A stretch of 63,978 nt of DNA, the filler included, from Craspedostauros australis (lineage: Eukaryota): the NCBI GenBank assembly GCA_030167865.1. It is 6 parts of 6 records of this genome, joined end to end, with 100 filler letters (N's around TTAATTAATTAA, not from the genome) between each part and the next. Parts side by side here need not be neighbours in the genome. Positions count along the whole stretch, not along the records: positions 1 to 22,899 come from JALAGF010004580.1; 5 more parts are not named here. The stretch is one strand, 5' to 3'. The notes below the pieces were generated by a model that was given only the letters and a program-made list of their open reading frames with translations, did no database searches and was not told the DNA's origin. Position numbers and translations under genes: made by a program. Each line of letters starts with the position of its first letter. Within the stretch, counting starts at the first letter, position 1. This document shows positions 1,806 to 62,942 of the stretch, one piece after another.

Positions 1806-4800
1806 CGAAAAATTCCTTACGGATATACAAATGTACCTACTATATTGATATCATGACCGCTCGTACTCATAGCTCGTGCGATGGTATGCGTGGCCTGGTG
1901 CATACCAATACGAGTAGAACCCACCTACTGGCTGATGATAGAGGACAGCAGGCGGGCAAGTGGAAACAAATCTTGATGATCGTTCCAAGAACATGCACCT
2001 CTACTCGTATCTGCACTCCGCCCGTGTTTGCACGCCATCAAACATTGCCTATGGTTGACCAGGAGACCGATCAGTCATCCCAAGCGAACTCGCCATCCAT
2101 CCGCCAGTCTCTGTCTCTTCATGGGAGTAAGAGTAGGGAGAGACATTCATTGTATGTGCCCATGTCACTAAACGAGCACGATCATGAACATGAGCATGGG
2201 CACGATCATAAGTAAGTGCCTTGACTCTACAAGTGCATGTGACCATGGCCATCTCTCTCTCTCCGAAGAGTGGCACATGTCTGCAGTAGAAATGCCAAAG
2301 TCCAAGGCACCAAACTCCGAACTCCACACAGCATCAGCATCAGCACCGGCGACAACGCCAGGGGCAGCGGCGGCTTCGACACTGGAGTGCTCTGCCCAGG
2401 AATCGATGGCAACCACCAAAGACGACGACAATGTTCAAAAGATCCAGTGGTCGCGACACGCACGCAGGTGTTTTTCCAATACTGAAGGACGTCACGTATC
2501 AGAGTCGGGTTGGTATACGTTTGCCCCTTGGATGTAGGAATTCGGATTCTGCACTGGCACCAGCCTTTGTTCGCGTAAGGTTGGGTGGGATTTGCTCCAG
2601 TCTCATTTTCATCCATCCAGAGGGAACAACGTCGTGGATGAATCGCACGATGGGAGGTCATTTGGCGACATCCTTTTCGATTGGGACCAGAGTTGCTGTT
2701 CCTCTTTCGCCAATCATGGTCGTCATTTGAGATGGGCAATTCAGCATCGGAGACGCCACACATCGCACAGTACGGTCTGCCAAACCAATGCTCTCCTCCT
2801 GTCATTCTCTGTATTCACAAGGTTTAAGAGCCCGTTTCTACCTCCGACGCCAAAGATCCCTTTGCAGAATCGCGGAATGGAACGGAATGGAATGCAATGA
2901 GGGAGATGATTCGGACGAGGAATGTGTTCACAAGTCCACTCGAGCAAGAACATGATGTCATGGCCACAACCTGTGAACGAGCGTCTGCCAGAGTACCATC
3001 CTTTACACGAGGATGAATGCCCTCAACCTTGCCTCCCATCATAGGTCGTACACTCTCTGTCTGCTCTCGCCACCGAAGAAGCAATCCTTTCAGATCGTCT
3101 ATCGTCTATCGCTCATCGCGCATCCCATCAACAACGGGAATAATAGAGGAGCACTCTTCCATAATACGAGTAGCATGGGTCAACAACTGTCGCTCGGGCC
3201 TTGCGTCACTACCAGCGCGACTGCACTTTGTGCTACATTGTCGCAATGGCTAACAACACTGGGACACGTACCGGTATGGACACCGACATTGACATCCCCT
3301 CCTTCGCTTCGTGCAGATGGGCCCACTTCTCGCCTGGTCATCACATCGACATTAATCTTAGTGTGTGCGAAGTATGTACGAGTATGTAACCGAGCCCACT
3401 CTACTCTACTCTGTCAGAGAGTACGTATTTCTTCGGTGAATCTCGGAGCGACAACACCAATTCGTATTTCCGCAGCAGCATTGTGTAGGGGTGACGTTGC
3501 AAGATTTGTTGAGCTCGGACATGTCTGTGTACTCGCCCGCGAAACAATGGAACAACGTCACAGCGAAACAGAAGCCTGTCATCCACATCACCGATGTGGT
3601 CATGATGTCATGAGACACATTCGGCAGTGAACAGTACGGTACACTGCCACCTCAACGCACTTTCAACATCTCTGCACAAGCACTCCAGCGTGCACTCGGG
3701 GAGAGCGAAGTGGAAGCTTCTCCTTGGCTCGTCACACCTGCGCCCACGAGTTGGTATGTATGGTACGGGTATGACGTGATGTAAAGCGAAGAACAAAAGA
3801 TGGAGCGTGGGCAAAACAATCTCCGCAGCAGAAGGCTAGAGAAGTTCACCACTCTGGAGCCCAGTTGAGCAGTGGATGTATCACAGCTCACAGGTATGAT
3901 ACGTTGTTCTGGTGCCACATCGTCAGTCATCTTGGGCTCCCACTCCCGCCCACTTTCGAGGACAAGTCCAGAGATGTACGAGCTCATCAATCGCAAATCT
4001 CTATACTCTACGATCTTGTTCGTCCTCGGACGTCGGTACCTCCTCCTCTCTCTTTCCTCCAGAGTGTGCAAGGTTGAGCATTCCGCGCAATTCCGATCAC
4101 CAACACCAACACCAACCCTGCCCCACTCGCCCCTCAAAACTTCTGTGCTCTTGGCTTCGCATTGCGTTGCACCACAACACATCGGATCGAGACCGCCCGT
4201 TTGACGAGACCGTTTCTTTTGCCGAACTTGTTGTGTGGATGAGAACTGTGTTCGATGACGTAGGGCCGAGATGGATTGCGTATTCCCTGTAGTACGTACA
4301 TGTCCGCGCTGATGCGAACCGATTCCTGTTTGGCGCTGATTGACGAAGCGGCGAAGGTATCAGGTCTGAGTGGGCTGACGTCGCGATCTGCACTAGCTAC
4401 ACGAACTACGAGTACTCTGGCATGGAGGCAGCTCATGTGGTTGATGCCTTTCAGCGTGAGTGGGTTTCGTTAGCCAGGTATTCCCACCATACGAGCTGCC
4501 TATACGTACGGGCACTCCAAGTATGGCGGCAACCTGGCCAACGTCAGAATCAATTCATATCATTTCATCCATCGCCCGTTATCCACACAACGAATGAATG
4601 AATGAATGAGTTCACCAAACATTTGAAAAAGGCCGCGCAATCGCACACAACCCCGTTCTACCATGCGTACGCGCGGCACAAGCAGAGTACCAGCGTACGA
4701 ACACATCAGATTGTACTATGGATTCCATTGGAGCACATTGAGGCATAGCGCAGTATTGATAGAATGAAATGCCGATAGAGCAAGACAGCACGGCACAGAA

Positions 4801-6267
4801 CAAGTGTTGAGTCCCAATCTCTGCCGCCGTCTTCATGCGCAGGCAAGGCGGACGGAAGGGCACCATTAGACCGAGTATGGAATGTAGAGCGCATGGCTGG
4901 AGTCGCTGTTCCACGTCCAAGTCGCGTTATCTCCCTCTCTCTCTCTCTCTTACTCCCACTCGCTTACTTCTTCATCAAGTGGAACATTTCGTCTGTTTGG
5001 TTGCGGGAGGATCGACTCATCGACATGGAGTAACGCAGCCCACGGATGGAAATACCAATCCTGATGTTCGCGACATCGACACACATGTCATCGCCACAAT
5101 CGAGATGACCGCAGATTCAACTCCACAAGGAACTGTTCCGCGCAGAGAGTATGCTCTGTCGAAGTCGCCGTCCTCCCAAGCAACCTCGCCGACCATCGGG
5201 CAGATTGCGGAGGTACCAGGACACAATCATCTCTTCTGCGCAAAAGATCCCAAGGGTACATTTTCCATCTGCAGCAGGTATAATACTTGGCACATACCGC
5301 TCTTACAACTACTCGTATCAAGGCGACTAGTCACCCATCCACATCCTTCGGCTCGTTCAACCATCTCTCCGCAGCACCGTGCGAGCCATCAATCGCAGAA
5401 GAGAATGTGGATTTGGTTGCGTGTGCCATTCGATGCTCGGACTGAAGCCCCATTCACGGTACCCAGCTTCAGGCAAAACACGACCACTGCCGCTGGTTGC
5501 AAGCACACATGGTACTCCACGCTATCTATTCCACAACCACTCGGACGTGTTCATACTCGTGCCGCGGCACCAGCACCATGCGATAATCGCGGTGCGTCAA
5601 AACAGCCGAGCCATGCAAAAGACTCGCATTGTCCACAGTGAAACAGAGTAAATGCTTGAGCGATGGTCACGGTCATCATGGCTCGCACCTTGCCCGCAAG
5701 AGAGAGAACATCGCCAAGTGCGAACGTATGAATTGATGGATGGAAGAAGAGACCTCGAGACGTTGGTAAGCACAACAGGTGCCTCTGGAGGAAGGAACGC
5801 CGTGTGCAACCACGGTCGACGATGCACTCCAATCGCGATCAAGCCGCAAACCTGTTCGAAGTGGATCGACTAACTACATCGTGAACATAGATACAAATGG
5901 TTGAATGACAGACGCAATATTGATGGTGCAGTGAGCGCGCCATCCACGACACGAATCCGCAATGTTCAGCAACATGATACGACTACTCAGACCCAAGCAG
6001 CGGCATCAAGCTCTTCCGTCCACCCAAGCGAAAGGCTACGCTCATACCGGCTGCACTCTGCGACCATCTTTGGCTGGACTCCAGGAAAGACCGCCCGAGG
6101 CCAAAGAACCATGCTGTTGCACTCCACATAGCTCGTACTTGTCCATCAAAAGAGTAGCGCACTTTATTTTATCAATGTATTGCTCTTCGTCCACTTTGCA
6201 TGACACACGTTGACACGCAGATACATATGATATATATGCCATAATAGCCATGATCCTATCCCTGCGA

Positions 6268-7914
6268 CTATGCCATGGAATCGTCGTCATTCATCAGCAA
6301 GGTGACGTTCGATTGCACAAAGTAGTTCTGCACGAAGCTCCCACGGAACACCTCGGATGCCACGGACGCGCCTACTTGATCATCGTCTTCGTCGCTGCTC
6401 TTGTGCTTGTCTGCGGCAGCCTGCCCGTCTGCCTCGTCGTCATTGGTCGCATGCTTGCGGGAGAATGTTCCCAATCCGTGCATTTCTCCTTTGACGAATT
6501 CCCCCAGATAATGGTCGCCGTTCGTGAACCACAGCGAACCGATCCCGCTGGGTTTGTCGTCGATCAATGGCCCCGAGTAGAATGCCTCGCACGTGATGAT
6601 GGTCGCACCGTCATCGACATTTGGCCCGCTATGGATCTCGACCTGCATGCTGCGCCGTCGTGTGCGATAGATCTTGTTGCCGTGCTCGTCCGTGGATGTC
6701 TGCGTTCCAGTCGAATCCATCGACGAGCTGAGACGTATCGACAGATCCGCTTCCTGGTGCTGCTCGATTGCGGAAGCCGATGACATTGTTCCCGCGGCTG
6801 CTGCTGCGGCTGGGACAAAATCGACCTTCGGTTTGTGAAGGAGGAGGTTGGACAAGTGGTCCAGCGTGTACTCCTCGTCCTCGCTGGCAAGCAGCTGCAG
6901 TGAGCTGGATATCTGGTTCGAGCCCGACAGCCAGTCATCGGTCGGCGCCTTCATCTTCCATTGCAGGCGCAGCGGCTGCAGGTGGGCCAGGGTGTCGCTG
7001 GATGCCGGCGATGGTGGCTGTCGCTGCGATGTCTTGTTCGACGATCGCTGGCGTCTTCTGGAGCTGTGGCTGCCCTTGTCCTTGCTGCTGGGGCTGCCGT
7101 CGGCGATGGGCTTGGACGAGGAGGGCCGTTTGGAGGTGCGGTGCTTGATCTCCTTGGACAGCCTCGTCTGGAGGATGGACTTGTGCATGACGACCTTGCA
7201 CAGATCGTCCGTGGTCGTCTTCAGATCCGCTTCCATCGTCTTGACGGTCTGCGACGACCGCTCCACCTGACGCTGGTAATCGGCATTCTGCTGCAGCAGC
7301 GTTCGCAGCTGATGTCGATGCTGCCGTTTCCCCTGGGTCTGCTTGATCTGATCGTTGGAGGACTGCAGAGTGGCCGTCGACACTCGCAGCCCCTGCACCT
7401 GCAGCTGGTACGCCCCCACCTGATTCTCGAAGTCCTCCTGGAGCTGGTCGTGACGCGATGCGAGTTTCTGCATCTCTTTGGACATCCCGAGCAGCGTCTT
7501 GCTGCCCATGGCGTCTTTCAGCGCCTTGTCGGAGGGAGATGCTTTCGCCGCCGGCGCTGGTGGCGTTGTCCCGTCAGAGCGCTTGCGTGCCGGAGTCGCG
7601 GCGTTGTCCTCACGGCGATCGACGAAGATGGACGCCTTCTGATCGCTGCCCACCTGACCCGTGATGATGCTGGAGGCGAACGAAAGGCCACCGTTGGTAT
7701 GGCCGTTCTGTGCCGATTTGGCGCCATTTTGCCCTTCCCTCGCCGAATTCGTGTCCACTGCGGCAGGCACTTGCGAATGTCCCAACCCATCGCCGCTTCC
7801 GCCGCCGCCCATGATGTATCCCGATTCTGGCACCTTGTGATGCAGCTCCAGCGGCAACGGCTTCGTCATGGTCATCGCCGTCTCCATGTCAACCTGGTGA
7901 GCGCTGACTCTCAT
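6268..7914 (-). CDS. Coiled-coil protein with C-terminal MORN repeats (~548 aa if started at MRVSAHQ)
   Basis: Long intronless ORF with a heptad-rich central segment (EMQKLASRHDQLQEDFENQ...). C-terminal YSGPLIDDKPSGIGSLWFTNGDHYLGEFVKGEMHGLGTF matches the MORN consensus YxGxxxxGxxHGxG. Start codon choice is uncertain. Confidence 0.75.
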   Translation of the reverse strand: MRVSAHQVDMETAMTMTKPLPLELHHKVPESGYIMGGGGSGDGLGHSQVPAAVDTNSAREGQNGAKSAQNGHTNGGLSFASSIITGQVGSDQKASIFVDRREDNAATPARKRSDGTTPPAPAAKASPSDKALKDAMGSKTLLGMSKEMQKLASRHDQLQEDFENQVGAYQLQVQGLRVSTATLQSSNDQIKQTQGKRQHRHQLRTLLQQNADYQRQVERSSQTVKTMEADLKTTTDDLCKVVMHKSILQTRLSKEIKHRTSKRPSSSKPIADGSPSSKDKGSHSSRRRQRSSNKTSQRQPPSPASSDTLAHLQPLRLQWKMKAPTDDWLSGSNQISSSLQLLASEDEEYTLDHLSNLLLHKPKVDFVPAAAAAAGTMSSASAIEQHQEADLSIRLSSSMDSTGTQTSTDEHGNKIYRTRRRSMQVEIHSGPNVDDGATIITCEAFYSGPLIDDKPSGIGSLWFTNGDHYLGEFVKGEMHGLGTFSRKHATNDDEADGQAAADKHKSSDEDDDQVGASVASEVFRGSFVQNYFVQSNVTLLMNDDDSMA

Positions 7915-13244: not shown

Positions 13245-16200
13245 TCAAGACGACGCCGGAATGGGCTGTGGCATTTTACCGCCTGCCGCGTTCTTGCCGC
13301 GTTTCCGATTGCCCTTGCGGCCCTTCTTCTTCTTTGTCGCCTTGCGCTTGGCGTCCTCAACCTCGTTGCGGATTTGGGCCTCGATCTCGTACTGCTCCTG
13401 GATCATCAGCTCCTTCGTCTGGATGGCGCGGAAAGATCCGGCGCGTTCACGCCGTCCGATATACCAGCTGCCTGCCCCCTTGCCGAACGTCTCGTCCTGG
13501 CGGGCCTTGAAGTCGGTCTCCTCCTGCTGGATGTCGCGCAGGCTCTTCGAGGTTGGGGTGGATTTGGTCTTGGGGGTGGCGGGTGGGTGTTCGGGGAATG
13601 GCGACGATGTCTTGATTGGTGGGGGTTGTCGCTTTGCCTTGGGCGTGGACCACGGGGACTTGGATGGTTTGGGCGTCGGTGTCTTGGTGGGGGTCAAGAA
13701 GGCAGCCAAGGAATACGGATCGTCACCGCCACCCGCCTTGGTGGACGGTGATGGTGCAAGCAGATTTGCTGGAACACAGCGTGTGCTCAATGGCTCCGCT
13801 GTGGCTGCTCCTGCTGTCGTTGTGGTTGCCAACGTTCGCGAGGTGCTTGGTGATTTGCGTGATGCTGACATCATCGCGTTCCAACTCCCATGTTGTCCTG
13901 CTTGCAGCTTCGATTGGTGCAAGTGCGGTTGTGATGATGATGATGCCTTCTTCTTGGATGACCTGGGTTGCTTCAACGAGGGGACTGCCATGGTTTTCGC
14001 ACCTCCTTTTCCTTTTCCTGTTGATGCTTTTGCTGTTGCAGCCGTTGTCATCGTTTTGACTGATGGCGACGCCCCTGGCGAGACAACCTTCGATGCCGAT
14101 CGTTGCTCACCGGCCATGATGTCACGCAAGCTCACCTTCGTCCTTATGGTTTTCGGGGTTGGCAGAGTTCCTTTCTTCGTCTTCTTTGACTTGCGGTCCT
14201 GCTCTTGCATGATCGATCGTAGATCACTGGACTTGGTGATGGGGCTGCCGCAAGCTTGCTTCTTGGGCATGCTTGGAATGACGCCGGGACCCGTGGTATG
14301 TGGCGGAGGTGGGAGCGTGTACTTGGGCTTTGGAGATGTGGCTGCTGCTGCTGCTGCTGGCGTTGTTGTTGTTAGTGTCGGTGTCACTGATTTCGGTGTC
14401 GCGGCACTTGCCCAGGCCAATTTGGTTGGCTTGCGATTGGTTGGTTGGACTTCTTGCGAGGTGGACACCATGAGCTGCTGCTTCTGCTTCTGTGCCAAGA
14501 TCGTTGCTGCAGCGGTTGCCTTTTCTGCTTCTGCGGCCTGCGACACGCGATTGCGATGCTTACGACCATTGTTGTGCAAGACGTAGCTGGTCTCGTCCTG
14601 ACATTTCACGCAGCACACCCCGCAGTAGTAGGACTTGGTATTTGTCGTTGTCGTTGCTGCTGGAGCTGTTGCATGTTCGCCATCTTCGGATTGCTGCGAT
14701 GCTGGGTCGGCTTCCTGCTGACTCTTCGTGCCAAGTGTCTTCAAAAGCGTCTTTCCATTCGCGTCTTGAACCTTCACAGCATCACACCCGATAGTAGTGT
14801 TCGATGGTTGCTTCTTGGATGGAATGACGAAGTCGCCCATGCGCTTCTCGACTACTCTCATCGCCTTCTCCAGATAGTCCAGTTTGGTCTGCAGCAAATT
14901 CTTTCGAGTGATTTTGCCGCGCTGTTCGTGCGTGAGATCATTCGTGTCCGATTGCTCCAGCTTGGCGATCTGATTCAACCGCTTCTTGGTTCCGCGGATC
15001 TCCTTGTTGAGCCATTCGAGCTTGCAGTTCGCCAACGTGCTGCTGGAGAGGTCCATGTTGGTCGTGCTTGCGATGATCTGGTCTAAGCTCTCCTTGTCTT
15101 GATAGCTCACGGAGACGGAATTGCCCCTCTTTCTACCGTCTGCAAAGTTGTTGAAAGAAGCGCCGCGTTGGCGACGGGCGCCCATCGAAGAAAGAGCGAC
15201 TTGTGCATCTCTACGAGCTGCAGCACCGGCGGATAGACGAGCCATGTCCGTCATGGAGAGAGAATGGCATGCCTTCACCCATTCCTCGTGAGAGCAGAAC
15301 CAATCCTTGCCGAAGGTGGGTCGCTTGTTGGTTCCCGCATCAATGATGTCCGTGATGAACGGATGGAAGCTGCCGTCTCGGAAGTCAGTGCGGGAGTGGT
15401 ACAGGCTGTCCGACAGCATGTCATCGAGGTACTGGTTCATCACGCTCCTCTGAGCCAAGTTCAGTACTCCATCCAGATTCAAACGGATGAACTCCATGCA
15501 ATGCTTGATCAACGCATGCGACTGTCACGCACGACATGGTATATGTAGAGTAGAGTCCGAGCAGCGTATTGTAACGGAATGTGAGATGTTGTGAGGCGTT
15601 GGGACATGCACATACTCGTACGCACCATACTCTAAACAAGGTCATCGCGTATTGAAACGCGCCATCGCCCTGGTGCCTCCATCCTTACATATTTCCAATC
15701 CCAAGATTCATCCAATCATCTCAATAACCACTCATCAATCTGCACTCACCTCCGTACGTTCCGCAAGTATCAAAATCGGCAGGACGTTGAACAAGTCGAC
15801 ATGCTCAACGATCCGTCTGGTTGCCAAGTGCTCCAATGTATCCATCTCATGGAGCAATGACGGGAACGATGCACCAACCAATACAACGGTGTGCTCCTTC
15901 GCCACCGCCACACTGACGGCGCGATGGATGCCCGGCACTTGCTTGGGGGATGGCAACCACCGTTGGCCTTCATGTCCCAGCACATTCTTGCCATCGGCGG
16001 CGCCCCACGTGTACAACGCACCCGTGTCCGTCACGACGGCCGTATGATGCTCCGATGCGGACAACGCAACGGCGAGGCCACCACCATTCTCGGGCAAAAG
16101 ATCGGTCACCAGCTGCGGCGATGATGGTGACTTGCGTTGTTGGTGCATAGAAGTCGAAGAGGATGACGACTTGTTGGCGTCGCTGTTGGTACGACCGAGG

Positions 16201-18371
16201 CTCTCGGCATGGAATCCCCATGTATAGACATGGCCGTCGCTCGTGATGGCCGCGTTGTGGAACTTGGCGCAGGCGATTGATACTGGATTGCGCACATGCT
16301 TCGTCGACAATCGGTCAGTTGCAAAGTCTTGCTGTTTGGAATCATCGTCGAAATGAACCTTGATGGGGACGTGGTTGCCATGCCCCCAGGAGTAAATCGT
16401 GTTGACATGCATGCCCCTTGAGGCACCGCATAGGACGAGCGTGGATTGGGCCGACGCCGCAATTTGGATCGTTACCTTTTCCGTGTTCCACAAGGACTCG
16501 ACGCGTTGGACCCTTTGAATTCCGGTCTTGCGACTCACACCGAGCTGCCCCGATGAATTGTCTCCCCACACGTAAACCTCTCCACGTCGCGACAGCGCAA
16601 TGGAATGGCGTTCGCCAGCCGCCACAGCAACGCATGGTGCCTGCTTCAAATCTTCGACTCGGCGAGGGAGGTATCGGCAGTTAGCATTCATGTCCGATGA
16701 TGATGATGATGTCGACTTGTTTGTGCTGGTGCCGTTGCTCATTCCGAGTTGCCCGAATCGATTGGATCCCCAGGAATATACTTGACCCTCGGATGTCACG
16801 CACAGAGAGTGATTCTCGGCAGCTGCGACGGCAACCACACGGCGGCGCGACAACGGCCCCGACACCCGCATCGGCAAGGGACAGTGATTTTGGTCGTTGC
16901 CCACTCCCAGCCGACCGCCCTTGCCCAGACCGAATGCATACAGTGCACCATCGCGTTGCACGACGAGGGTGTGATGCGCTGCCGCCGCAACGGCAACCGC
17001 GGACGATAGCCTGCCCACAGTGTCCTGCGCAAACTCCTTGACACGCTGAGGTCGGAAGGAGGCGCTTGCTGCCATGGCCATACCTCCTGAAGTGCTCGTC
17101 AGCTTGGAATCTGCCATTCCACCACCGTGGGATGTACCGGAATGCACGCCCAGCGCACAGTGCTGCGGGCGACCGAATGTGATGACTTCGCACGCGTATG
17201 CGTTGCGGCGCTTTGTTTGCGCATCGCCATCATCATTGTCGCTATCGTCGTTGAGCACATTGATGTTGTCGTTGAGGAAATGGAAGTCATCTTCATTCTC
17301 ATCCTCGCTGTCAGGATGGATCGTGGCATCGAAGCTGGTGCGCCTGTTGCTGCTGAAGGCCGCAGCTGATCTACTGTTGCTACTGCAATAATGGACGGTC
17401 GGCCGGGCGATGGATGCTCTGCAGGCACGCAGTTCCGTTGTCTGCAGCTTCCCCAACAGCTGCAACGGTGTCAAGCCCTCACGATCTTCTTGCGTCATGA
17501 TGGAGCGAATGAGGCATTCTCGCGGATTGTTGACCGACTTCATCGCTCTCGAATCGTTGTTGCCATTGTTAGGTTGTGACATGCTGTCCGTGCGTGATCG
17601 TTGACGTCTGCGTCCATTGCTGGTGTTACTACTGCCATCCCCGTTGCTGAGGGATAAGATCGAAGCGCCGGTATCTTCGGATGTCTGCAAGATATTCATG
17701 GGCCGTTGCACAAAGCGCTCTTGCTCTGTGGAGATATGCCGTAAGAAGAGAAGGATGCGGGGCAGGTCCGCATGGATGATTGCCGAATGCAGCGGGTTGT
17801 ATCCGCTTTCCCATTCCTGATGCAACAAAAAGTCTCGTTGGAATGAGGCCGAAGACATCGACAGCGACAACGATGGTGACGATGACATGGCCATGCTCGA
17901 CGATGGCTTGTTGTCAGCAGATACAGATGCAGCAGATGATGAGGCGGCAATGTTGCTGTGACTGTTCGTTCGCCGACGGTTTGAGGCATTCCCAGACATA
18001 GTCACGGCAACGGACGATGAATGGACTCCAGCATCATCCAACCACCTGGCTCTGTCCAGCAATGATTTCGCGAGAGTGAGATTGGCATGACGATGATGAA
18101 GGAAGGTCATGCCTGAACCACCATCGGTGAGATGGTTGACAATCTGCAGCATGGCCGCCGATGACTGCTGGGCCTGCTTCATTGTCACGCTTGGCGTGCG
18201 AGCTTCATCCTTGTTCCCATTTGCGTTGACAACAGAGTTGGCACCCATGCTAGTACGGGCATTGATGCTATCATTGGTGTTGACCATCGTGGCTGTGGCA
18301 TCGAAGGATTGTGAGTGTCGACGATCTCCGAATGATTCCCCTGACATGGATCTGTACCTCCGGCGCGGCAT
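13245..18371 (-). CDS. IBTK-like ankyrin/RCC1-repeat protein with BACK-like helices, coiled coil and U1/matrin-type zinc finger; 2 exons (18371-15750, 15521-13245), ~1632 aa
   Basis: ESGYNPLHSAI and DREGLTPLQLL are ankyrin-like. Multiple RCC1 repeats (VAAAENHSLCVTSEGQVYSWGSNRFGQLG etc.). GTGAGT donor and CAG acceptor join ERTE|SHALIKHCMEFIRLNLD in frame. Zinc finger YYCGVCCVKCQDETSYVLHNNGRKH and C-terminal SLRDIQQEE-type motifs. Confidence 0.8.
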
Positions 18372-20511: not shown

Positions 20512-21460
20512 ATAGATGTGACTGTGTCATGCATACGAGAGTGGAGAAAGGTGAGAGACAAGAGAAAAGAGAAACGGGGGACCTGGACTTCTGTGCGTCT
20601 CTGTGTTCATGTGTCTGTGTGTCCTTGTTTCTGTCTTTCTGTGCTCCCATCTTTCTTCTCCCGTTCCGTGCGGATCTCAATCTTTGCGGTGTTCCTGTGA
20701 TACCGGCTCAGCTGTCGCTCATCAATGACATCATCAATGACATCATCGCCGGAACTAACTCCGCCATCACTCGTCGCATCGGCTCCACTCTGCAGCCATC
20801 GCCACTCCGCGGATCATCAACATCCAACCCCCCAAGATCACACAGGCATCCGCAAACGACTTGGGAGTGATGTGATAGAAGTATCATCACGAATGGCCAA
20901 CATGTCATGACTTTCACAAGTGACACACGCTCTCCCAACAAGCGATGAGTGCCTGGCGACCACATTTTCTTTGCATCCGACAGCCATCACCAAACAACCA
21001 ACTCAGACAGCTCAAACCTTTCCGACAATGTACACATCAGCAGAACCGTATTGGTCTTGATTGTGCGGGAGATCATGCATTGGGTCTTCGCCATCAGGCT
21101 CCTTGCGCTTGCACGTACACCTGTGCCTGTGCTTGCATCTATGCCTGCAACTTGCGCTTGTGCTTGCGATTTGCCGACCACACACCGCCGCAGTCACAGC
21201 CACGGTTGCGGTCACAAACGCAACCACAAGCGCAACCAAGCAGTCTTACAAGATCACGATCATAGCGGACGCGCATGATTGGCACAGGTCTTGCACATGT
21301 GTAAGTATGCGTGAATGTGCGTACGTTTGTTTGGATTTTTATGTATCTATTCCGTTTTATGTACTGGTGCTGTATTGTGTATTGTTGAAGGTGGAGGAAA
21401 CAGACCGAGAAACGCTTCCTTCATGGATGCCGATGACCGACGATGCTACCCGGAATGCGC

Positions 21461-22189
21461 TCAGTCCATCTTGAAGTCAACCACGTGACAGGCAGCCTCC
21501 TCGGCATCTCCCAGACAGTCCGGGTAGCTGGTCACGAGTTCCTTGTACGCCTTGGTGCAGGTCTCCGCCATCCTCTGGGTGTAGTCGGCGATGTGGGCCA
21601 CTGGGGCTGCGCTTTCGTCGTTCTCCTTATCTTCATCCTCGTCCTGCAATCTGCGGCGGGTTCCTGGGTAGTTGACGCAATAGTTGCAATCGGAGTAATA
21701 GACGCAGCAGGTGAACTGCATGACCGCGTCGGTGGTGTGGCACATCTGCGGCACCCATGGCTCGCAGATCTGCAGACGGCGGCGGTTTCTGTGCTCCTGT
21801 GGAGCAACCTCATCGATGGCGGCACCACCGCGCAGGTTGGATGCGTGATGATTGTGCACAGCGGCGCGGACGTCACTGGCGTGGTCTGCTGCTTCGTCGA
21901 GGTTGCGGCGATCTCCTGGATGGCTGCTTCCCATGTATTGTGGACCACCTGCGAGGATGGTGTCATCGAAGAGATGGTCGGAACCTTCGCCGGCGCAGGT
22001 CTTGATCATCGACTTGATGAGGCCGCGGATGGCTTCCATGCGGTACACAGTGCACTTCTCGTTGGGGAGGCTTGATGGTGGGCAAGTGACGATGAGTTCG
22101 TTGGCGGCAGACACCATGGTGGTGGTTGCTGTCATGTTGAGAATGAATGCAGCGGCGAGGGCGAATCGGGACATGGTGAGGAAAGTCAT
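21461..22189 (-). CDS. Secreted cysteine-rich proprotein with three RxL-type processing sites (242 aa)
   Basis: Hydrophobic N-terminus (MSRFALAAAFIL...VSA), sites DRRNL, RNRRRL and TRRRL, an NLRG motif and 12 Cys arranged 3/6/3. Strong C/G-ending codon usage like other genuine genes here. Confidence 0.8.
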   Translation of the reverse strand: MTFLTMSRFALAAAFILNMTATTTMVSAANELIVTCPPSSLPNEKCTVYRMEAIRGLIKSMIKTCAGEGSDHLFDDTILAGGPQYMGSSHPGDRRNLDEAADHASDVRAAVHNHHASNLRGGAAIDEVAPQEHRNRRRLQICEPWVPQMCHTTDAVMQFTCCVYYSDCNYCVNYPGTRRRLQDEDEDKENDESAAPVAHIADYTQRMAETCTKAYKELVTSYPDCLGDAEEAACHVVDFKMD

Positions 22190-22416
22190 GTTTGCTTACT
22201 TTGCTTGTTTGTGTTTGGGTGGTGAGTTGTTGTTGTTGTGTGCTTGTGGTTTGTTGTTGCTCGGCGTTTGCGAATTATGAGAATAAGGAAGTGATCGAAG
22301 TCGATTCAACACATGCTGATCTAACGCTGAGTTGAATGTGATGATGGTGCTGCGCATTAAACAACACACTATCCGATGTGATTCTGTACTATGGCTCGTA
22401 CGAGTACGACTCGGCA

Positions 22417-22452
22417 TGGGTTGGTACGTGGGTTGGTACGTGGGTTGGTATG
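22417..22452. repeat. Short tandem repeat, 12-bp unit TGGGTTGGTACG (~3 copies)
   Basis: tgggttggtacg tgggttggtacg tgggttggtatg, upstream of the secreted proprotein gene. Confidence 0.8.
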
Positions 22453-22943
22453 TGAGTTGCAGTGAGTCGACATGAGATGGCACCAACGCGAATCCACCTA
22501 CCTCCTTTACTCCGATACAACCGCCGGCCGAATCCAAACCAAGATGGACGCTGTCCGCGACACTCAACCAAGAACACAAAGTGAGCATGCAGCGGTGGAG
22601 CCACAAGAGAGTGCAGGAGAGGTAGTCGAAGTACCGATGGATGGAGTACCTGAACATCCCCTCCGTCCAAGATGATACCACACCATACTAATACAACAGT
22701 GTAGAGTGGAGTATTTGACTCCTACTTGACTCGCACATGACCAAGACCAAGACCTCACTTTCATCATGTCTTTTCCTGCTTCGTTCTCGTTTGTGGCCTT
22801 GGTCCATCGGCGCCTCGGCAGGTGCGGACGGGTGGCGCCTGCGCGTCCCTTGTCGCTCGCCCCTCCGCTGCCATTCACTACCATTCACTACCATTCACTN
22901 NNNNNNNNNNNNNNNNNNNNNNNNNNNNNNNNNNNNNNNNNNN

Positions 22944-22955
22944 TTAATTAATTAA
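22944..22955. other. Artificial scaffold linker TTAATTAATTAA within N gap (also 50584-50595, 58309-58320, 60320-60331, 62572-62583)
   Basis: Identical palindromic 12-mer with stops in all six frames, always flanked by ~44 N on each side. Confidence 0.95.
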
Positions 22956-24189
22956 NNNNNNNNNNNNNNNNNNNNNNNNNNNNNNNNNNNNNNNNNNNNA
23001 CCTCAGCTCAAGCATCTTCCATCATCAAGCATTATCTTTCAGGTCTTTGATTTGAGAGTATGGTGACTCCATGGAGTTCTACGACTTCATTGGGCTTACC
23101 AGGCCATCGTTCGATCGATTGGCATAACTGCTATAGCCTGGCATTGAAGCGTTGCCCGTTGATCCATGAGCTGCGGCGCCACCACGACCATCATATATTC
23201 TCTGTTGTAAGTTTGACTACATCGATGTCACTGCCATTGCAATGGAGTATCTGGCTTCCAAGACAGAATTGTAGAACCATTTCTGGTAGGATCTACCTTT
23301 GTTGGAAGGTCGGAAGAGATCTTGGAGGACGTAGGGAGCAATAGAATGGCAGAGGCTGAAGTTGAGGCAACGGAAGAGCACTCTCGCGAAACAGGGACTA
23401 TGGATGACAATTGTAACCTGACATACGAAGCGATGGCTCTTGAGAAGAAAGCAAAGGAAGATGTGGAATACATCAATGATACCCAGAAGCAAAGAAGGTG
23501 TGAGTGGGAAGCTACAATGGCCATTTGTATCATCAAAGCATCAACAATGAGACAATAAGCAAGCAAACAATTGCGCTGAATGCTGCGATGGTTGGGATAG
23601 GTACGTGGAGCGTTCAATGAATGAAGGAGTGGACACCAGCAGCACAGCCAATGGAGAAAGGAAGACAGAGGGAAGCAGGAAAGCGACGACGCTTGGAGAG
23701 TAGTATGGAGATGAACTGCGGATGGCACGGAGCGACACATACGTATATACAAACACATTCATCTGGTATATGGCAGTTGAAAACTGCACTTAGGCAAGAC
23801 ACATGTATTTGTGAATGTGTGAAGCAGCAAGAGATGTGCGACACTGAAGCTGTGAATGTGTCAACATACGACCCCATTCAGCGAGGTCGAGCATAATCCT
23901 GTCAATGTTGTCCAGTAGGGTTAGATATATTTAGATAGCTCTTACAACACTAATACATGGCTTGTCCTCACTGTGGACGAGAATGATGCCGTCAATGTTG
24001 GTCGATATCAGACTGCGATGGTATCCAACAGAGTGGGTAGCGATGTTGTGACAGCTTCAGTGTCGTGTTGATTCCTCATGTTGTGGACGATTGGGCTCTG
24101 TTGTGCGTTTCCTCCCTTGTGCGTGTTGTGTCAAGTAGCACAGGGTTGTTTTTGGCATCCCTACACGTTCACGTCTACATTCACGGCAA

Positions 24190-25000
24190 CAACAGCAGCA
24201 GCTTCGCCAGATCGGCTGGCGTACATACAAGACGGCGCGACAGTTCAAGATGAACCGTGGGTCCACGTGTTTCATCTCCAAGTGGGCCTCGGGCTTTCTG
24301 GGCGTCAACCACAAACTTCATCAGACAGGCCAGCTGCAGTCGCCAAAATGCAAGTTCTGTGCCAGCAACGAGACCACTCAACACGTTCTCCGTTGCCCGG
24401 AGCATCAGGAAGCATGGGATGGGGCCACTTCTGGCCTAATCGATCGCATGGTTCAGATCGGGACCGCCCCAAGGCTGGTTCAACGCATGCGGGTCGGTCT
24501 TGTGAGATGGAGAAGGAATGCACGATCCAACGATGTGCAAAGCAACATCGGGTGGTACCCCCTCACAATGGGGTTTATCCACGAGGACTGGGCTCTCCAT
24601 CAGGCCCACTGGATGATGACGCATGAGTGTCGTTACCCAGATGCCAATGCTTGGGCCCGAGAGATTGCACGATGGATTTGGAGAACCCCGTGGGAGGTAT
24701 GGCTGGTGCGGAATGCCAAAGTGCATGACAAAGAGATGCACCCCTCGGTCCAGGACCTGCGACGCAAGGTCCGCCGAATGATCCAGGGTGCGAGTCAGGA
24801 TATGACCGAAGCGGAGATGCGTTTGTTCTGGGAGGGCTGACATATCGATCACGGCACCAAGGTTCAAATGCAACAGTGGGTGAACTCTATGATCGCCGTT
24901 CACGCGGCGGTGAGAGCGCGGCGACGATCGCGGTCGATGCATGCCGAGAGGCGGGCGTTGGCGGCTTGGTTGGGGCTTTCACAGCAGACGACACATGCCA
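24190..25000 (+). mobile_element. 5'-truncated non-LTR retrotransposon, ORF2 C-terminal CCHC region (resembles diatom Ambal-type elements), pseudogenised
   Basis: IGWRTYKTA...FISKWASGFLG...SPKCKFCASNETTQHVLRCP is the CxxC...ETxxHxxxC knuckle of LINE ORF2, followed by WEVWLVRNAKVH (W..RN..H motif). In-frame TGA at 24838-24840, with the frame continuing to ALAAWLG. No RT domain upstream. Confidence 0.75.
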
Positions 25001-50539: not shown

Positions 50540-50639
50540 NNNNNNNNNNNNNNNNNNNNNNNNNNNNNNNNNNNNNNNNNNNNTTAATTAATTAANNNNN
50601 NNNNNNNNNNNNNNNNNNNNNNNNNNNNNNNNNNNNNNN

Positions 50640-58263: not shown

Positions 58264-58364
58264 TNNNNNNNNNNNNNNNNNNNNNNNNNNNNNNNNNNNN
58301 NNNNNNNNTTAATTAATTAANNNNNNNNNNNNNNNNNNNNNNNNNNNNNNNNNNNNNNNNNNNN

Positions 58365-60275: not shown

Positions 60276-60377
60276 NNNNNNNNNNNNNNNNNNNNNNNNN
60301 NNNNNNNNNNNNNNNNNNNTTAATTAATTAANNNNNNNNNNNNNNNNNNNNNNNNNNNNNNNNNNNNNNNNNNNNGC

Positions 60378-62527: not shown

Positions 62528-62942
62528 NNNNNNNNNNNNNNNNNNNNNNNNNNNNNNNNNNNNNNNNNNNNTTAATTAATTAANNNNNNNNNNNNNNNNN
62601 NNNNNNNNNNNNNNNNNNNNNNNNNNNCAACACTTTGTGTTGATCTATCGTGGGCGATCATTTGCACGCCGCGAATTCGCATCTTTGCTGTTTCGTAAAT
62701 ACAGTTGTATTCGTATGTTACCGCAACCCCACATGAATATTGTTCTCATCGAATCAAACTAGGACCACCTATTCCGTTGTCGGTGTGAAAGATCTTCCCT
62801 TGGCGTCCAATTCTCGCTTCCTGCTCTCGCGCATCAGCACATCAGCATGTTGGCACATCCACCAAAATCATTCATCGGAAACAACCGCACAAGGCCACCG
62901 AGCACACCAGCGATTGCACCATCATCCGTTTCAAGACCCAGC

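Follow-up and report, generated by a model that had tools for sequence, protein, structure and literature searches.

What does the 242-codon open reading frame on the minus strand of this window encode, a secreted protein that acts whole or a precursor from which a small cysteine-rich peptide is set free? The window is the whole stretch of DNA analysed, 63,978 nucleotides from Craspedostauros australis. Translation of 21461-22189 gave a frame without internal stop, a single-ORF gene for a preproprotein, P0001 (Table 1). The host is a diatom, as its genome contained 92 silicon-transporter family matches (lowest E 2.6e-247); many of these were partial or carried stops, and the count was inflated by the redundant assembly, possibly on top of a large expansion. 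All elements named in a preliminary description of the locus were found in place, namely the 3+6+3 cysteines, RRNL, NLRG, RNRRRL, the 38-aa core at 21659-21772 and RRRL. The cysteines are residues 36, 46 and 65 in the N-flank, 142, 150, 161, 162, 168 and 171 in the core, and 211, 225 and 234 in the C-flank, and the four motifs occupy residues 94-97, 118-121, 134-139 and 178-181. The core has a reduced mass of 4415 Da and the spacing C-x7-C-x10-CC-x5-C-x2-C. We consider it probable, at about 0.6, that P0001 is an RXL-processed secreted proprotein, which would be cut and paired in three steps into a two-chain, disulfide-linked shell and a released three-disulfide peptide.

Table 1. Features of P0001 and its locus (positions along the window; 4/4, all four family members)
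Feature	Position	Strand	Basis
P0001, gene for 242-aa preproprotein	21461..22189	-	ORF and homologues
Predicted signal peptide, residues 1-28	22106..22189	-	Hydropathy; cut after Ala28 inferred by eye
N-flank, residues 29-93: strand and helix, Cys36/46/65, conserved CAxEGSxHxFD	21911..22105	-	Conservation and model
Site 1, RRNL; RRxL in 4/4	21899..21910	-	Alignment, shuffle test
Variable spacer, residues 98-133	21791..21898	-	15% mean identity (residues 98-135)
LRG motif within spacer	21827-21835	-	LRG in 4/4, position varies
Site 2, RNRRRL; R-[RK]-L in 4/4	21773..21790	-	Alignment, shuffle test
Core peptide, residues 140-177: six Cys and invariant W145, V146, Q158, Y170; acidic	21659..21772	-	Alignment
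Site 3, RRRL; RRxL in 4/4	21647..21658	-	Alignment, shuffle test
Variable acidic linker, residues 182-195	21605..21646	-	14% mean identity, 0/14 positions invariant
C-flank, residues 196-242: helix, short helix, strand; Cys211/225/234	21464..21604	-	Conservation and model
Block holding P0001 gene, 2,368 bp, identical in 4 contigs	20532..22899	.	Contig comparison

Three relatives of P0001 were found at 38-40% identity: P0002 from the same genome, P0003, an unnamed JGI protein, and P0004, an MMETSP transcriptome protein labelled Stauroneis constricta, a diatom of the Naviculales. A phmmer search over 1.84 billion representatives, with no stated length limit, returned two matches, the query itself and P0003. 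Homologue searches with P0001 and with a two-sequence alignment returned P0001 itself only, and a three-sequence profile gave three matches among 8,000 scored candidates, P0004 being newly added; the word-index searches, three in all, were confined to proteins of about 123-424 aa. The ESM Atlas held no usable match for P0001 or P0003, and none of the pattern matches was confirmed in metagenome contigs (0/70 and 0/341) or viral contigs (0/36). P0001 matched 0 Pfam families at E up to 10, and a PDB sequence search with the core alone returned nothing. The pattern C-C-x6-C-x-Y-C in genome DNA gave 380 matches, mostly simple repeats, versus 398 for a control, and was therefore uninformative. Several weak candidates were set aside: DUF3927, matched by one of the four members (Pfam, E 0.14); leucyl-tRNA synthetase (PDB sequence match, E 0.88); and Erv1/ALR sulfhydryl oxidase, which matched the C-flank weakly (E 0.029), the first Cys of its CxxC having no counterpart. 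The literature searched, mostly open-access papers without the supplements in which gene lists may stand, contained no description of the family, which is thus undescribed there and has no Pfam or PDB assignment. With four sequences found, the family looks rare, which limits its general reach.

In the four-way alignment of P0001-P0004, all 12 cysteines were invariant and the three Arg-x-Leu-type sites lay at the same positions in every member, so that both the secreted-proprotein organization and the persistence of flank cysteines and RxL sites among homologues were borne out. The signal peptide is predicted from hydropathy, with an 11-residue peak of 2.1-2.9 starting at positions 7-11 in 4/4. 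Mean pairwise identity was 45% in the N-flank, 40% in the core and 46% in the C-flank, and it was 15% in the spacer and 14% in the acidic linker; 17/65, 10/38 and 13/47 positions were invariant in the N-flank, core and C-flank, respectively. The inner peptide, which had been expected to be hypervariable, is therefore conserved, and the cores of the four members (38-41 aa) are acidic, with a net charge of -1.6 to -3.2 at pH 7 in 4/4. Cysteine spacing was fixed in the flanks (9/18 and 13/8) and in the core (7/10/0/5-6/2), while the distances between the cysteine modules varied (54-76 and 32-47 residues), as expected for separate modules. When residues were shuffled with the cysteines fixed, any one site appeared in 0.2-0.5% of shuffles and the three jointly in 0/20,000 per protein for the four proteins, a significance that is overstated since the test windows were drawn after the alignment was seen. 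Additional RxL motifs occurred in the N-flank helix of P0001 and in the linker of P0004, one in each. Four known sequences are too few for covariation; the modular anatomy of the family is well supported. Some other traits did not hold across the family: Gln stood first in the core of only 2/4 members, so the suggested pyroGlu N-terminus is not a conserved trait, a Gly before site 3 that could serve amidation occurred in 1/4, and a conserved N-glycosylation site and an ER-retention end were both rejected as family features.

The comparison between core and flanks bears on which product matters. Outside the cysteines, identity was 29% in the core and 42-43% in the flanks, so the shell may be the working part or main product instead of the core. 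In proinsulin and the Kex2-cut fungal killer preprotoxins, excision of an inner piece at basic sites leaves the two outer chains joined. By analogy, the two-chain shell of P0001 could be the active product and the core an internal pro-piece that aids folding or blocks activity until it is excised. The conserved polar stretch in the N-flank also favors this explanation, which we nevertheless regard as unlikely. The core keeps its six Cys and the W, V, Q and Y residues in 4/4; the P0003 and P0004 cores are 68% identical, far above the spacer or linker; and a third site parts the core from the spacer, which would be needless for mere discarding. Unlike the inner pieces of proinsulin and the preprotoxins, that of P0001 has six conserved Cys of its own, and no fold match to proinsulin or killer toxins was present among the Foldseek and VIA-align matches listed.

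Structure prediction addressed whether the flanks of the proprotein belong together. The AlphaFold model from two sequences had a mean pLDDT of 39, with helices at 48-70, 198-221 and 229-241, and that of the mature chain from four sequences had a mean of 46.5, with 66-80 in the flanks and 25-43 everywhere between, in the order strand, helix, insert, helix, short helix, strand. The best fold alignments of the four-sequence model matched both chain ends to a single unbroken segment of about 90 residues, and those of the two-sequence model joined helix 48-70 to helix 198-221. On this basis both models, weak overall, pack the N- and C-flanks into one unit, which fits the earlier idea of the flanks as a two-chain carrier. 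From the order of strands and helices rather than from coordinates, the flank disulfides are probably nested (C36-C234, C46-C225, C65-C211). A complex prediction for the two flanks scored 0.03 with the alignment not used and counts neither way. Foldseek gave 0 matches at E up to 0.001, and the best VIA-align Z scores (6.6 for the four-sequence and 5.1 for the two-sequence model) were too low for fold assignment; the top match, an SPFH / band-7 domain (Z 6.6, rmsd 3.3, 83 aligned, 5% identity), may reflect only a common arrangement, as Z was below 8.

The core had a pLDDT below 50 and appeared as strands in the two-sequence model and as helices in the four-sequence model, which speaks neither for nor against a C1-C4, C2-C5, C3-C6 knot with beta-hairpin, and with models this weak the core may make contacts or disulfides with the flanks. 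It is conceivable that the sites are cut and the pieces stay together, with contacts or disulfide cross-links joining core and shell into one multi-chain protein, perhaps a part of the cell wall or an adhesive matrix. The models do not fix the position of the core, the diatom RXL proteins already known are associated with silica or the wall, as described in PMC4557024, PMC5647440 and PMC5501833, and high GC3 (0.73 in P0001 and 0.83 in its paralog P0002; 0.60 and 0.63 in two neighbouring ORFs) may hint at abundant expression. Against such an assembly, six core Cys and six flank Cys can each pair fully and the linkers on either side of the core vary in length. Moreover, neither silaffin-like Ser/Lys-rich repeats nor Ser/Asp/Glu-rich units were found in the family by sequence and four-way alignment, and no hydrophobic anchor follows the signal peptide in the P0001 sequence. 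This explanation ranks behind the active shell and is likewise improbable.

In the favored reading, processing would proceed in three steps. The signal peptide would direct the proprotein into the ER; the N- and C-flanks would then fold as one small alpha/beta unit, as modelled, with three nested disulfides, and the looped-out core would form three disulfides of its own. A secretory-pathway protease would cut after the three Arg-x-Leu-type sites, a step suggested by their conservation and proposed likewise for silaffins, whereby the LRG spacer would be dropped, a core of 38-42 residues freed, and the acidic linker kept on the C-chain of the two-chain shell. The sites mark off the core, and outside them the adjoining segments show 14-15% identity and variable length. 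According to PMC4557024 mature silaffins are without RRIL/RRNL ends, a precedent for trimming the C-terminus of the core, and RALF23 is cut after RRIL by plant S1P (PMC13082318). In the genome, 42 subtilase matches were found, and a scan of 7 of these loci, yielding 8 whole or partial ORFs, showed the convertase P-domain in 3; these three P-domain subtilases (L026, L030, L031) are candidates for processing at Arg sites. Alternatively, P0001 might be an uncut single-chain secreted protein whose Arg-rich motifs serve as sorting signals or are only partly cut. Diatom RXL motifs have so far been described from silica-associated proteins, and their processing, in the words of PMC5647440, "remains to be proven" in general; in addition, S1P-specific Pfam domains gave no genome match in a search run without a positive control. 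All four members, however, have at their module borders three motifs in exactly the form that silaffins lose, and this alternative is quite improbable. Since three RXL motifs surround a small conserved peptide of predictable mass, the proposed processing is directly testable by mass spectrometry.

The sequence evidence confirmed the P0001 ORF as a real gene, its GC3 above that of the two neighbouring ORFs and the shuffle test both pointing beyond chance. That it is none, or that the core is an intron, is barely credible: the assembly is fragmented and duplicates a 2,368-bp block, but three homologues are in frame, core GC3 is 0.84 and 0.90, a GT[AG]AG donor is absent from both coding sequences, and the core is present in the transcriptome-derived P0004. 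The start of P0002 aligns with Met6 of P0001, so translation of P0001 may begin at Met6. The P0001 gene occurs, identical, in four contigs. The block they share is terminal in the contigs, and its flanks, two upstream and two downstream, are alike at first and then diverge; this arrangement points to a heterozygous locus or a single recent duplication, not to four genes. P0002, 40% identical to P0001 and on another contig, is the one true paralog; when P0002, the core, P0003 and P0004 were used as queries, no other locus turned up in the genome, such counts being lower bounds. Run X1, whose RNA nature is a guess and which may be the source of the assembly, covered 21234-21675, 21853-22740 and 22822-22899 with no joint; its gap at 21676-21852, where most of the core lies, carries no weight. 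Two differences in the acidic linker, at 21628 and 21638, were seen in this run, the first type silent and the other a Lys188-to-Glu change, each on a single contig.

Paired N runs at 22900-22999 (enclosing the TTAATTAATTAA spacer), 50540-50639, 58265-58364, 60276-60375 and 62528-62627 mark contig joins, and DNA past 22899 is thus not a true neighbour of P0001. Downstream of P0001 on the same contig lies an 878-aa ORF with RCC1-like repeats (15735-18371, minus strand). On one of the two alternative flanks (L022, G000:C4403), the gene is followed downstream by the ORF of a secreted-looking 873-aa protein with 53 Cys (4016-6637, minus strand). This protein has stretches rich in Pro/Thr/Ser as well as two repeated Cys-rich blocks, and it matches DUF7640 weakly. 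A SET-domain ORF (L023, G000:C6180; 2529-4034, minus strand) lies about 3.8 kb from P0002, and no tandem cluster of the family was found near P0002 in the stretch examined. Beyond the first join, a 196-aa ORF (24250-24840, plus strand) with a weak zf-RVT match (E 0.031) is probably a retroelement remnant.

If released as proposed, the acidic, aromatic core would use its invariant Trp-Val, Gln and Tyr to bind an extracellular protein partner. Of the single roles, that of a signalling ligand is the likeliest, at a chance well short of even, because an acidic peptide with invariant aromatics suits protein binding over membrane attack and because diatoms use a peptide pheromone. A matrix or wall component and a defence peptide or enzyme inhibitor come next, equally placed, and some other role is less likely still. 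The net charge makes a cationic antimicrobial peptide unlikely. The fuller proposal, a gene-encoded three-disulfide diatom signalling peptide of non-knottin framework, enclosed by a two-chain, disulfide-locked shell from the same precursor and set free by an RXL protease, is tentative. If true, diatoms would have an equivalent of plant RALF or of animal prohormones, and the search for the RXL protease, so far known from silica-wall proteins, would gain a defined substrate. As a ligand, the core would also give diatoms a gene-encoded peptide signal besides SIP+, the only peptide pheromone solved in the group. The pennate diatom Seminavis robusta signals with this all-L, disulfide-containing peptide, which differs from the P0001 core in having 7 residues, one disulfide and a sulfate (PMC12843257).

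Among known systems, the C-C-CC-C-C order of ICK/knottin toxins and mussel MgCRP-I recurs in 4/4 members, and release at basic sites, described for such peptides (PMC4558851), is proposed here too. The cystine-knot framework put forward in the preliminary description thus stands for cysteine order and fails for spacing, since loops 2, 4 and 5 of the five core loops fall outside the ICK consensus CX3-7CX3-8CX0-7CX1-4CX4-13C given in PMC4942781. The mature region of MgCRP-I is C-terminal and hypervariable (PMC4558851), whereas the P0001 core is internal and conserved. PawS1, in which SFTI-1 is buried in a 2S albumin precursor so that one precursor gives a small peptide and a two-subunit protein (PMC11253845), is the nearest precedent we found for a peptide buried in this way; it differs in its asparaginyl endopeptidase, cyclic product and unrelated sequence. 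Plant RALF prepropeptides, processed by S1P/SBT6.1, have RRxL immediately ahead of the mature peptide, which is Cys-rich and about 5 kDa in size (PMC13082318), as here, yet RALF has two disulfides in a C-terminal peptide without an enclosing shell, in contrast to the internal six-Cys core of P0001, and no sequence similarity between the two was found in the Pfam searches. The diatom RXL-processed precursors (silaffin Sil1p, silacidins, cingulins and frustulins; SAPs and SiMat7-like proteins) have in common with the P0001 family a signal peptide and RXL/RRxL at module borders as described in PMC4557024, PMC5647440 and PMC5501833, and RRNL, as found in P0001, is a motif that mature silaffins lack (PMC4557024). 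P0001 differs from these precursors in that a single core, non-repetitive and disulfide-rich, is nested within a folded domain, and in having neither Ser/Lys-rich repeats nor a transmembrane segment. The P0001 family would therefore work like the RXL-processed diatom precursors and plant RALF, while being a member of neither the silaffin nor the RALF family.
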